Shown: positions 41,300 through 46,599, numbered from the stretch's first letter. The stretch: DNA of 64,000 nucleotides from an uncultured beta proteobacterium (GCA_963734295.1 CAVTGS010000012.1:586429-650428); one strand, 5' to 3'. The notes: generated from the letters alone by a model not told the origin. Numbers and translations: made by a program.

Positions 41300-41375
41300 T
41301 CCCCGATAGCTCAGTCGGTAGAGCGACGGACTGTTAATCCGCAGGTCCCTGGTTCGAGCCCAGGTCGGGGAGCCA
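41300..41375 (+). tRNA. tRNA-Asn (anticodon GTT), CCA encoded
   Basis: tccccgatagctcagtcggtagagcgacggaCTGTTAAtccgcaggtccctggttcgagcccaggtcggggagcca. Cloverleaf checked by hand: 7-bp acceptor, GCTC/GAGC D stem, CCTGG/CCAGG T stem, TTCGAGC T loop. Close to E. coli tRNA-Asn. Confidence 0.9.
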
Positions 41376-41639
41376 GATATCAAGCACTTGGCCCCGGCCG
41401 GGCATCTCACCGCTATCAGAATTTTGGACGCTGTCGAATATTTCGGCGTCTACCCCCCTTTTCCGCCAAACAGGCGATCACCCTGGCTTCCTTTGTCGCT
41501 GCATGTGGTTCGGCGACTATCGGAGTCGCAGGGTTGACCAGGAGCGCCGATGTAGACGCCCCCCGCGCGTACTAGCGCGATGTCATAGGCATGGTATGCC
41601 CTGAGAACGTGAACCGCTGTATCTGTCCGCTGCGCCCCA

Positions 41640-41875
41640 CGACGAGGTGAGATCCTCCTTCTCGGTTGACGGCAAGCCGCAGCCAGATCCCAACCGGCTG
41701 GCTCCACACGGATCGCTCGGCATCAATTTCACGCTTCCTCCACGGCGATCTCGTCGAAGGGTTCATGCTCATCTTGACGTTGGCCAGGTCAACACCCGAT
41801 CCGTCCGCCTTGACACCTTGACGTTGTAGTCGAGGACCCGTTTGACGGGGATCAGGGAATTCCCTTTCCGGACAA
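41640..41875 (-). pseudogene. electron transfer flavoprotein beta subunit (etfB) N-terminal remnant, multiply frameshifted
   Basis: Minus-strand translation across three frames reads ...LIPVKRVLDYNVKV / VKADGSGVDLANVKMSMNP / FDEIAVEEA, the highly conserved EtfB N-terminus. There is no start codon and at least two frame changes within about 130 nt. Confidence 0.6.
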
Positions 41876-41914
41876 GGCCCCTGCCGGCGAGGGATACACG
41901 GCAGGGCTAGCGGA

Positions 41915-43555
41915 TCATTCGATGGCCAGCGCCGAGTTGGCGTGCTCACGCAGGACGTATTTCTGGATCTTGCCTGTCGAGGTCTTGGGCAAGGTGCCGA
42001 ACACCACCTGCTTGGGCACCTTGAAGCGCGCGAGGTGGCCGCGGCAGTGCTCGATGATCTCGGCCTCGCTGGTGCGCGCGCCGTCCTTCAGTTCAATGAA
42101 GGCGGCCGGCACCTCGCCCCACTTCTCGTCGTGCTTGGCGACGACGGCGGCGGCGATCACCGCCGGATGGCGGTAGAGCACATCCTCGACTTCCAGCGAC
42201 GAGATGTTCTCGCCGCCGGAGATGATGATGTCCTTGGAGCGGTCCTTGATCTTGACGTAGCCGTCGCTATGCACCACGGCCAGGTCGCCGGTGTGGAACC
42301 AGCCGCCGGCGAAGGCTTCGGCGGTCGCCTTGGCGTTCTTCAGGTAACCCTTCATGACGATATTGCCGCGGAACATGATCTCGCCCATCGTCTCGCCGTC
42401 CCAGGGCACCGGCTCAAGGCTGACCGGGTCGCGCACCTCGATCGCTTCCTGCAGGTGGTAACGGACGCCCTGGCGGCCGTTGCGGGCGGCGCGCACGTCG
42501 ATCGGCAGCTTGTCCCATTCCGGGTGCTTGGCGCAGACCGAGGCCGGGCCGTAGGTTTCGGTCAGGCCGTAGACGTGAGTGATATTGAAGCCCATCTGCT
42601 CGGCACCTTCGATGATCGCGGCCGGCGGTGCGGCACCGGCGATCAGGCCGTTGACCGTGTGCTCGATGCCGGCCTTGAGCGCCGCCGGGGCGTTGATCAG
42701 CATGCCGTAGACGATCGGCGCGCCGCACAGGTGGCTGACCTGGTGCTCCTTGATCAGGCCGAAGATCAGCGCCGGATCGACCTTGCGCAGGCAAACGCTG
42801 GTCCCGGCGTTGGCCGCCAGCGTCCACGGGAAACACCAGCCGTTGCAGTGGAACATCGGCAGCGTCCACAAATACACGGCGTGCGGCGGCATGCCCCACG
42901 AGATGATATTGGAGGCCGAGTTCAGGTAGGCACCGCGATGGTGGTAGACGACGCCCTTCGGGTTGCCGGTGGTGCCCGAGGTGTAGTTGAGGGCGATGGC
43001 ATCCCACTCGTTGTCCGGCAGTTGCCAGGCGAAATCCGGATCGCCTTCGTTGAGAAAGGCTTCGTAATCCTTTTCGCCGAGCGCTTCGCCGCCGGTGAAG
43101 TCGGGGTCCAGCGCATCGATGACCAGCGGCTTGGGCCCGTCGAGCAGGGCCAGCGCCGCCTCGATGGTGGCCGAGAACTCGGGGTCGGTGATCAGCACCT
43201 TGGCTTCGCCGTGGGTCAGCATGAAGGCGATGGCTTCGGCATCGAGCCGGGTGTTCAGCGTATTGACCACGGCGCCGGTCATAGCCACGCCGAAATGACA
43301 TTCGAACATCGGCGCGCTGTTCGGCAGCATCGCGGCGACCGTGTCGCCCTTGCCGATGCCGCGGCCTTGCAGTGACGAGGCCAGCTGACGGCAACGGTCG
43401 TAGGATTCTTTCCAGGTGTATTGCCGGCTGCCCTGGATCACGGCAATGCGCTTCGGATAGACGAAGGCCGAGCGCTCGAGAAAGCTCAGCGGCGAAAGCG
43501 GGACGTAGTTGGCCGGATTCTGGTCCAGCCCGTCGGTATACGGGTTTGCTGCCAC
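41915..43555 (-). CDS. acyl-CoA synthetase (AMP-forming, ANL superfamily)
   Basis: 546 aa with ...[15 protein letters not shown]...YGLTETYG...WFHTGDLAV...[22 protein letters not shown].... Confidence 0.85.
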
Positions 43556-43756
43556 AAATGTCTCCTCACGATTCTGGCGAAGACGCTGTTCTCCTTATTG
43601 ATGCTTTTTTAGTGAGCGCGAGGATGGCAAAACACTCTTGCGCAACTACCTGCTCTAGAATCGCCGAATGCCTCACGACACCACCCACCCCCCCATCCTC
43701 CTGCGCCAGGAAATGCTGCAAGCCGGCCTGGACATGCTGGATCAGGGCGAAGGAGA

Positions 43757-43899
43757 GGAATTCCAACGGCACTTCCCGGATTGTCTCTTCGCCGTCAGCC
43801 GTGGTCAATGCGGGATTTCGTGTTGAGCGCCCCTGAGAAGTGGCAGCGAATCGCCATGCGCGCCCTGCTGGGGTCACACGATCGGCCGCAGCAGGTCGG
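43757..43899. repeat. left copy of a 143-bp imperfect inverted repeat
   Basis: The reverse complement aligns by eye with 46186..46327. The core of about 100 bp (ggaattcc...gaagagacaatcc...ccgtggtcaatgcgggatttcgtgttgagcgcccctgagaag) is about 95% identical, and the flank is about 80% identical. Confidence 0.8.
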
Positions 43900-43924
43900 C
43901 CTCAGGCACGAGCGGTCCCCGGCG

Positions 43925-45520: not shown

Positions 45521-45533
45521 GAGATCTCCTCGT

Positions 45534-45872
45534 TCATCTGTCCTGGCTGCTCGTCAGCGCGACGAACTGCGCGAATTCCCTCAGCGACTTCGCGGCCTTG
45601 CGCTGCACCGGGTCACGCACCAGCGGCGTGGCGTCAAGCAGCCAGCCCTTCCAGCCGAGCGCCTGGCCGGACCAGCGCCAGAAGCTGAAGTCGTCGACCT
45701 GCTGCATGATCTTGCGGGCCGCGATCACCATCTCGGTATGCACCTTGTTTACCACCAGCCGCTGGGTCGGCGTGAAGGTGTAGCGCGCCGTCCAATCGAC
45801 CCGCGCGCGGTCGGCGGTGTCTTCCATGATGTCGGGGCCGATCTCGAGATCCTCAGCTTCGGTCAGCAGCAT
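45534..45872 (-). pseudogene. NTF2/SnoaL-like protein, probably 5'-truncated
   Basis: 112-aa ORF with ...VDWTARYTFTPTQRLVVNKVH...DDFSFWRWSGQALGWKGWLL.... It resembles the C-terminal two thirds of NTF2-like proteins. The ORF begins where the IS110-like remnant region abuts. Truncation is inferred, not proven. Confidence 0.4.
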
Positions 45873-45940
45873 CTATTGAGATGAACGCACCTGAAACAGC
45901 CCTACCAGGAAAGCATACGGGAGCAGCGGGCCAGTTGTAC

Positions 45941-46185
45941 ATGGCGTTCGAGCTGAGCGACACGAATGGCTACTGGTTGTGAGCGATGGTCCGCGGGGAC
46001 CGAGCCGTTATACGGTCGACGCGGGCGATACGCGGGCGATACTGGAGGCCACGCCAAGGCCAAGGCGCGCCGCGCTTTGGTGAGCGACGTCGAGGTGCGC
46101 AGTTGCTACGAGGCGGGCCGCGACGGCTTCTGGCTGCACCGCTGGCTCCTCGAGCAAGGCATCGACAACCTCGTGCCCCCTCAGC
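45941..46185 (+). pseudogene. IS110-family transposase N-terminal remnant (frameshifted, truncated)
   Basis: ATG 45941 reads MAFELSDTNGYWL*. After a frame change it reads ...GTEPLYGRRG.. / ...KAKARRALVSDVEVRSCYEAGRDGFWLHRWLLEQGIDNLV, which resembles the DEDD transposase N-terminal domain. It ends at the right inverted-repeat copy. Confidence 0.5.
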
Positions 46186-46327
46186 CCGACCTGCTCCGGC
46201 CGGTCGTGTGGCCCAACAGGGCGAGCGTAGCGATTCCCTGCGACTTCTCAGGGGCGCTCAACACGAAATCCCGCATTGACCACGGTTGACGGCGAAGAGA
46301 CAATCCCGGAAGTGCCGCTGGAATTCC
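46186..46327. repeat. right copy of the 143-bp imperfect inverted repeat
   Basis: See the left copy at 43757..43899. Both copies end at a GGAATTCC palindrome and both carry the same read-through tail ...FSGALNTKSRIDHG*. Confidence 0.8.
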
Positions 46328-46548
46328 TTATGAGGGCACTACGGAGATTTACGTCAAATGGCTGCTTGCCACGGTGCCCACGGTGGCACCGAACACTGTG
46401 AAGATGCGCGGTTGAGGACGTCAAAAACGTTTCGTAGGTAGTTGATCTATAATGCGGCAACGCGACGGTGGATAGTGTTTTCTTGGACGCTCCAGATTGC
46501 AAAAATCCGTTGGATCAGATATCGATAGTTGTTCTGACGCCGGCCGGC

Positions 46549-46599
46549 TAATCCGCAGGTCCCTGGTTCGAGCCCAGGTCGGGGAGCCAAAGCACTTGG
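46549..46599 (+). repeat. direct repeat of the 3' half of tRNA-Asn (att-like remnant)
   Basis: taatccgcaggtccctggttcgagcccaggtcggggagcca (41 nt) is identical to 41335..41375, running from the anticodon loop to CCA. Downstream aagcacttgg also matches 41382..41391 once the 6-nt gatatc present only in the left copy is skipped. Confidence 0.85.

Follow-up and report, generated by a model that had tools for sequence, protein, structure and literature searches.

A 5.2-kb islet without an integrase at tRNA-Asn of an uncultured beta proteobacterium: a probable decayed remnant of a tyrosine-integrase element

The DNA analyzed here, which we call the window, is a stretch of 64,000 nucleotides (nt) from an uncultured beta proteobacterium (GCA_963734295.1 CAVTGS010000012.1:586429-650428), and all positions are counted from its first letter. 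ARAGORN finds a single tRNA gene in the window, tRNA-Asn(GTT) at 41300-41375 on the + strand, and the 3' part of this gene recurs 5.2 kb downstream in the same orientation. Between the two copies lies an islet of metabolic genes and transposase remnants (41376-46548), which we compared with related loci and viral contigs (numbered with the prefix L). We consider it likely, with good confidence, that this islet is the decayed remnant of a tyrosine-integrase element that was inserted in tRNA-Asn and is now fixed with a few retained metabolic genes. The features that define its two ends are as follows, where attL and attR denote the presumed left and right attachment sites and aa denotes amino acids.

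39670-41169, - strand: gene for a 499-aa hypothetical protein beside the tRNA, syntenic in all relatives
41300-41375, + strand: tRNA-Asn(GTT), intact, CCA encoded (ARAGORN; Rfam RF00005, 67.5 bits); putative regenerated target (attL)
41335-41375, + strand: left copy of the 41-nt direct repeat, from anticodon base 36 through CCA; putative attL core
41376-41391, + strand: putative element-type 3' flank, a 6-nt spacer GATATC and then AAGCACTTGG (by comparison with L002 and phage attP-like sites)
46549-46589, + strand: right copy of the repeat; putative attR core and displaced original 3' half of the tRNA, with upstream DNA unrelated to the tRNA 5' half
46590-46721, + strand: putative ancestral downstream region of tRNA-Asn, with a host-type flank (AAGCACTTGG without spacer), up to the PAS-GGDEF-EAL gene (aligns to L001 and L003)
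46722-48461: PAS-GGDEF-EAL gene, right of the interval

Exactly two copies of the 41-mer TAATCCGCAGGTCCCTGGTTCGAGCCCAGGTCGGGGAGCCA are present in the window (41335-41375 and 46549-46589); a search at up to three mismatches added no third copy, and 100 shuffles gave none. The first base of the repeat is the third anticodon base (U36) and its last bases are the encoded CCA; the identity block extends from the anticodon loop to and past the 3' end of the tRNA, as in the anticodon-loop ('A') class of tRNA islands. At the left copy, GATATC precedes AAGCACTTGG; at the right copy, AAGCACTTGG comes without the spacer. An initial annotation of this DNA had described a tRNA-Asn with a 41-nt downstream repeat in the same orientation and a further 10-nt match that appears once a gatatc present only on the left is skipped; ARAGORN, Rfam and an exact repeat search confirmed the former, and the presence of AAGCACTTGG after both copies the latter. 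The tRNA-Asn sequence is identical in L001-L004 and L006-L008. In the sister strain L006, the right copy is identical to the tRNA over 47 nt (GGACTGT followed by TAATCC and onward). The repeat starts at or before C32 both in L006 and in all 21 of the phage attP-like sites described below, against U36 in the window; judged by L006, the 41-nt boundary in the window would be a slightly eroded version of the original.

Relatives were fetched with the left 499-aa gene and the right PAS-GGDEF-EAL gene; a scan of genome contigs for the former gave one locus only, L001, which belongs to the Burkholderiales metagenome-assembled genome JBDHRV010000002. In the Burkholderiales contigs L001 and L003 (ENA ERZ25039502), the PAS-GGDEF-EAL orthologue lies about 180-415 nt downstream of the one tRNA-Asn present; in L001, this orthologue has 92% aa identity to that of the window. 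L001 aligns to the window in two blocks: the first leads without a break from the PAS gene across the intergenic DNA and enters the right repeat copy, ending at 46538, and the second begins at 41375, with the same 52 nt of L001 serving both blocks. The DNA to the right of the second repeat copy aligns to the DNA to the right of the tRNA in both L001 and L003. These empty sites imply that the interval is an insertion and that its right-hand flank is the ancestral downstream region of the tRNA. The interval as a whole is exactly absent from L001 and L003, the kind of evidence that the Islander survey of tRNA-gene islands uses for an empty site, and L004 is an empty site as well except for an IS200-type transposase gene between the tRNA and the PAS gene. 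The initial annotation had proposed a search for empty-site relatives and had regarded the lack of any such variant as fatal to its reading; L001 and L003 supply the variant.

In L004, which is a more distant relative, the gene that separates tRNA-Asn from the PAS-GGDEF-EAL gene encodes an IS200/IS605-type Y1 transposase (8630-9073), and the same intergenic spot thus appears to have been hit independently by another mobile element.

Further support comes from viral contigs, since the 41-mer was found in 36 contigs of IMG/VR. Whereas 15 of these copies lie within a complete tRNA-Asn or are cut by the contig end inside one, the other 21 stand alone (among L009-L044; for example, L010 7654-7694, L014 4923-4963 and L017 8521-8561). 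Every one of the 21 stand-alone copies has CTGT directly before the core, so that the first anticodon-loop base is exactly where identity to tRNA-Asn sets in; directly upstream, it is lost. In 10 of the 21 stand-alone contigs, 33-81 nt separate the CCA end from an open reading frame (ORF) of 320-363 aa, and three further ones have an integrase-like ORF near or overlapping the core. All six of the ORFs tested matched the tyrosine integrase family PF00589, and at many stand-alone sites the integrase gene is convergent with the core, ending 33-81 nt away. In these viral contigs, the tRNA-Asn 41-mer therefore has the appearance of an attP-like site. The occurrence of the same 41-mer beside PF00589 integrases in phage contigs lends independent support to a tyrosine integrase acting at the anticodon loop. 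Strand exchange by such a recombinase would be predicted inside the 7-nt loop; what the contigs show is the adjacency of PF00589 genes to identical cores.

The DNA that follows the CCA end differs in type between the two ends of the islet. Most phage attP-like sites have CCA, then an A-rich spacer of 6-8 nt, and then (C)AAGCACTTG/AG; L017, for example, reads AGAAAAC-AAGCACTTG, with a spacer nearly equal to the GAAAAC of L002. A spacer is also present at attL, as GATATC in the window and in L006-L008, and as GAAAAC (plus AAGCACTTGG) in L002. Host-type flanks carry the motif without a spacer, namely AAGCACTTGG at the right copy in the window, AGCATTTCGG in L003 and GGCTTTTCGG in L001. The 6-nt indel between the two copies would accordingly mark one tRNA 3' flank as element-type and the other as host-type. 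Such polarity is predicted by a crossover in the anticodon loop, because the DNA 3' of the crossover would derive from attP at attL and would be the original host DNA at attR. Together with the empty sites and the phage attP-like sites, the flank polarity supports the proposal of the initial annotation that a tyrosine integrase inserted the element at an anticodon-loop attB. The spacer-plus-motif flank of the IMG/VR phages may also be used to separate element-derived from host-derived tRNA 3' ends. In some of the IMG/VR sites (among them L014, L033 and L043), the flank motif forms the 5' arm of a hairpin.

A displaced tRNA fragment might also be the leftover of a second tRNA-Asn that arose by tandem duplication, the interval having been inserted between the two genes by other means. 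Multi-copy tRNA-Asn genes are common, and MAFFT placed a few short matches (CAAAAAT and GATAG) upstream of the fragment. However, the 75 nt upstream of the right copy resemble the tRNA 5' half and its flank no better than shuffled sequences do (local alignment, p = 0.27; p = 0.16 without the stem; p = 0.08 for L006), and Rfam reports no truncated tRNA at the right copy. Moreover, every syntenic relative has one tRNA-Asn only, and the boundary of the fragment is the boundary seen in the 21 phage attP-like sites. A decayed second tRNA-Asn at 46549-46589 was rejected on the first of these p values and on the single tRNA-Asn in relatives. We give this alternative, which the initial annotation had itself named as a possible refutation, almost no credence, and the comparison came out in favor of integration.

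The interior of the interval, in which IS stands for insertion sequence and GC for the G+C fraction, contains the following features.

41376-41545, no strand: attL-proximal arm, non-coding, 87-93% identity to L002
41732-41900, - strand: N-terminal remnant of etfB (electron-transfer flavoprotein beta subunit), frame-shifted (blastn, ORF pieces)
41915-43555, - strand: acyl-CoA synthetase, intact, 546 aa (PF00501 and PF13193; NCBIfam PRK08162, 974 bits)
43756-43906, no strand: left arm of an inverted repeat, about 150 nt, beside the 3' end of the IS91-family remnant, 86-92% complementary
43907-44256, - strand: C-terminal remnant of an IS91-family transposase (blastn to annotated IS91 family transposases over 43957-44169)
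44309-44737, - strand: hotdog-fold (4HBT/PaaI-like) thioesterase, 142 aa (PF03061; TIGR00369)
44756-45520, - strand: enoyl-CoA hydratase/isomerase family protein, 254 aa (PF00378, ECH_1; NCBIfam PRK06023)
45534-45872, - strand: ORF of 112 aa, possibly NTF2-like (one tblastn match, 35% identity, under an NTF2-family annotation)
45881-46175, + strand: N-terminal remnant of an IS110-family transposase (blastn, 69-76% identity to annotated IS110 family transposases)
46179-46328, no strand: right arm of the inverted repeat, a solo IS91-like end, of which L006 retains about 50 nt more
46329-46548, no strand: attR-proximal arm, non-coding, GC about 0.56, 95% identity in L006

Most of this content had been named in the initial annotation. 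Its acyl-CoA synthetase, thioesterase and enoyl-CoA hydratase were recovered with Pfam and NCBIfam, its etfB remnant with blastn (41732-41857 has 80-85% nt identity to annotated etfB genes), and its two different transposase remnants at about 43957-44169 (IS91) and 45881-46175 (IS110); the lower-GC non-coding stretch near the right end was found at 46200-46599. The truncated NTF2-like gene fared less well, since the single tblastn match at 35% identity stands beside the absence of any Pfam or NCBIfam match for the 112-aa ORF. The absence of an integrase was likewise borne out: Pfam searches of the sizeable ORFs and six-frame pieces detected no integrase domain or remnant in the interval, tblastn of 11 phage integrases against the interval gave chance-level matches only, and none was found elsewhere in the 64-kb window. 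An integrase gene inside the interval, which Islander uses to recognize an island, is thus missing here.

The two arms of the inverted repeat lie just outside both transposase remnants with 2.27 kb between them, and they enclose the IS91 remnant, the thioesterase, the hydratase, the small ORF and the IS110 remnant. They look like two decaying, inverted copies of one IS91-type end, a reading based on the additional 50 nt or so of IS91-like sequence on the right arm of L006. The extent of the inverted repeat varies among strains. These elements raise the question of whether the boundaries of the islet themselves are a product of IS activity, through either transposition or IS91-type rolling-circle capture; the tRNA half would then be a target duplication or have been co-mobilised. 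Elements of the IS91 type can carry neighbouring DNA along when they move, and the interval does contain IS91 and IS110 remnants and the 150-nt inverted repeat of IS ends; yet a duplication of 41-47 nt whose start falls precisely at the anticodon loop and whose end lies beyond the tRNA is unlike an IS target duplication, and the IS remnants are internal rather than at the boundaries. To our knowledge, IS91-family elements make no target duplication. The spacer-type flank of attL, moreover, is of the phage attP-like type. We consider an origin of the boundaries by transposition highly unlikely; IS activity fits the mosaic interior better.

The provenance of the cargo is consistent with such a mosaic. 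In metagenome contig L045, a synthetase gene 88% identical to that of the islet is directly followed by an intact etfB start, an adjacency suggesting that the synthetase/etfB block of the islet is a piece of an ordinary chromosomal-type cluster. Among 80 metagenome loci with a related synthetase, not one had the thioesterase and hydratase as neighbours in the gene order of the islet, and a search for close homologues of the cargo on plasmids returned distant ones only, at no more than 74% nt identity. On this evidence, the islet is a mosaic that was put together around IS elements.

The codon differences between strains bear on the present state of the cargo, although the substitution counts are small for all of these genes. 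For the acyl-CoA synthetase, synonymous and non-synonymous differences stand at 15:1 against L007 and 10:3 against L008, and they indicate that this gene is maintained by purifying selection. The corresponding ratios are 5:2 for the thioesterase and 7:2 for the enoyl-CoA hydratase, both of which are probably maintained by selection as well. For the 112-aa ORF, the ratio is 1:6 against L006, which suggests that this ORF is drifting under relaxed constraint.

The same islet was found at 97-99% identity in four other metagenome contigs, whole in L006, as its left part in L007 and L008, and as its right part in L005. The differences among L005-L008 are concentrated in the non-coding and IS-derived parts: identity is 98-99% in the genes and 88-94%, with many gaps, in the attL arm. 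L007 lacks 142 nt at 41412-41553, beside attL, and the IS91 remnant is longer by 167 nt in L006 and by 88 nt in L008. In L005, a JGI contig, the region 46464-46665, including attR, is swapped for an unrelated GC-rich stretch of 112 nt (L005 1137-1248), and the hydratase gene is partly lost through a 462-nt deletion. At attR, L006 has GGACTGT followed by TAATCC where the window has CGGCCGGC followed by TAATCC; these are four AT-to-GC changes, two of them within the 7-nt loop. Positions 46540-46548 of the window thus read CCGGCCGGC against CTGGACTGT in L006 (reverse strand, about 4603-4611) within DNA that is otherwise about 99% identical. The four clustered changes could represent either local mutation in the strain of the window or gene conversion from the tRNA in L006.

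L002 departs from this pattern. Its left flank is 97.1% identical to that of the window, as close as those of the others, but it has in common with the window only the first 170 nt or so after the tRNA, and a 106-nt insertion interrupts its attL-proximal arm. After the shared arm, 1.1 kb extend to the contig end (L002 1-1114); this L002-specific DNA had no clear coding signal, no Pfam match, and no match in the window or in the phage or plasmid collections. The description of the interval in the initial annotation as a fixed, eroded islet therefore holds within the 97-99% identical lineage of L005-L008; it does not extend to L002, which shares about 170 nt only, and three cargo genes look selectively maintained rather than eroded.

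Could the islet still be mobile in trans? It might resemble a cis-mobilizable element (CIME) that lacks an integrase and whose attL and attR are recombined by the integrase of a co-resident tRNA-Asn phage or island. Both attachment sites are present, the right copy of L006 keeps the complete anticodon loop, integrase-bearing phages with an identical core exist, and CIMEs are defined by the loss of integration and transfer genes with retention of attL and attR (PMC6323972). On the other hand, no integrase was found in the 64-kb window, indels within the islet are most frequent in the arm DNA beside the two cores, attR is lost entirely in L005, and no circular or attP-type junction was found in pattern scans of viral contigs and metagenomes. 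In the presumed 7-nt overlap, moreover, attR of the window reads CGGCTAA against CTGTTAA at attL, differing at two of the seven positions. Tyrosine recombination needs identity in the overlap; on that ground, we infer that the changes at attR impair recombination and that excision would be unlikely even if an integrase were supplied. Mobility in trans is quite unlikely in our view. A related proposal, that the islet is a domesticated cargo cassette excised or moved in trans by tRNA-Asn phage integrases, with L002 carrying a different cassette between the same pair of att sites, we regard as very unlikely; if true, a trans-moved cassette of this kind would be a satellite- or CIME-like hitch-hiker in uncultured Burkholderiales.

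Several observations weigh against our preferred reading of the islet as a decayed tyrosine-integrase element. The present cargo is metabolic and not phage-like, and the interior of the interval has no similarity to the phage contigs beyond the core and the flank motif. Viral contigs gave no match when scanned for an intact, integrase-bearing relative by exact patterns of the attL flank and the attR junction, and neither did the metagenome collection, where the scan was weak in that the JGI contig L007, which has the pattern, was not returned; the island or phage relatives still carrying an integrase that the initial annotation had hoped for were therefore not met with for this element. Base composition and codon usage, which it had also put forward for comparison, are uninformative as island signals: GC is 0.61-0.66 inside the interval and 0.62-0.68 outside it, GC at third codon positions is 0.87-0.89 in the cargo genes and 0.80-0.85 in their neighbours, and the sole compositional exception is the non-coding DNA at 46200-46599, with a GC of 0.56. 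The motif AAGCACTTGG is common to host and element flanks, so that this part of the extended repeat may represent conserved tRNA-Asn 3' context rather than the crossover. Finally, the unrelated DNA that follows the first 170 nt or so in L002 implies a history with more than one event.

With these points in mind, we propose the following course of events for the tyrosine-integrase element. Its attP would have carried its own tRNA 3' half and a short terminator-side flank, and strand exchange would have occurred in the anticodon loop. Integration would have regenerated an intact tRNA at attL, its 3' half and flank contributed by the element, and would have moved the original 3' half 5.2 kb downstream as attR, where it kept its connection to the ancestral intergenic DNA and to the PAS-GGDEF-EAL gene. 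Deletions would later have removed the integrase and most of the element, ending within etfB on one side and no more than about 350 nt from attL on the other, and IS91- and IS110-family elements may have been inserted and then have decayed. The end state would be a non-mobile mosaic islet in which the synthetase is kept by selection, and probably the thioesterase and hydratase too. The repeat, the empty sites and the flank types make the integrase-mediated event itself probable; the original element may have been a phage or an island, and the deletions may have followed the order given here.

Outside the interval, the window consists of core genome, with enolase, a ChpA-type chemosensory cluster, holB, tmk, mltG, RNase E, uvrB and an aminotransferase. 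The 499-aa protein beside the tRNA matched no Pfam or NCBIfam family and had a sub-threshold AsmA-like match only; it evolves fast, with 64% identity where the PAS-GGDEF-EAL protein has 92%, and just 15 homologues were found in a collection of 5.8 billion proteins. The chemosensory cluster (9158-17731, - strand) comprises a 1809-aa ChpA-like kinase with several Hpt domains, a CheW and a receiver domain, together with an MCP, a CheW and a single-domain response regulator. Between about 15 and 19 kb in the window, GC drops to 0.55-0.60, and at 59505-63515 two overlapping ORFs of about 1300 aa each lie on opposite strands in DNA with a GC of 0.70-0.73.

For annotation, the practical consequence is that the 5.2 kb after tRNA-Asn would be treated as horizontally acquired and now immobile, and 46549-46589 as an attR scar and not a gene. 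We regard the islet as a new example of a well-known and well-understood genomic scar, in which the integration site has outlived the element: three metabolic genes have been retained, whereas decay affects the mobility functions and even the att arms. The analysis also yielded a set of IMG/VR phages in which the tRNA-Asn attP core is identical and the spacer-plus-motif flank conserved.

Among known systems, CIMEs (ICEberg 2.0, PMC6323972) resemble the islet in lying between attL and attR without integration or transfer genes; unlike the islet, whose attR is mutated in the presumed overlap and whose arms are decaying, they are defined by functional att sites and a cognate integrative and conjugative or integrative and mobilizable element. 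The islands of the Islander 'A' class (Williams 2002; Hudson et al. 2015, PMC4383910) are similar in having an intact tRNA at one end and a direct 3' fragment at the other, an identity block that extends from the anticodon loop past the 3' end, and empty sites in relatives. In Islander, a regenerated target together with a displaced fragment is the defining signature of an island in a tRNA gene, and anticodon-centred sites account for 2083 of its 3919 islands (PMC4383910). Islander islands differ in that an integrase is required, whereas the islet has none; at 5.2 kb and without a compositional signature, the islet is pieced together from fragments of chromosomal-type metabolic genes and from IS remnants. 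With the tRNA-Asn phages of IMG/VR (L017, and L010, L014 and L042 with their podovirus-like layout), the islet shares the 41-nt core, the start in the loop, and a spacer of 6-8 nt followed by (C)AAGCACTTG; these phages, however, have an integrase 33-81 nt from the core and virion genes on the other side, neither of which is present in the window. The Yersinia High-Pathogenicity Island and other asn-tDNA islands of Enterobacteriaceae have P4-type integrases and a repeat of about 17 bp at the extreme 3' end of the tRNA gene. They share with the islet the target tRNA species and direct repeats derived from the 3' part of the tRNA, but the repeat of the islet extends from the anticodon loop to beyond CCA, which places it in a different sublocation class.

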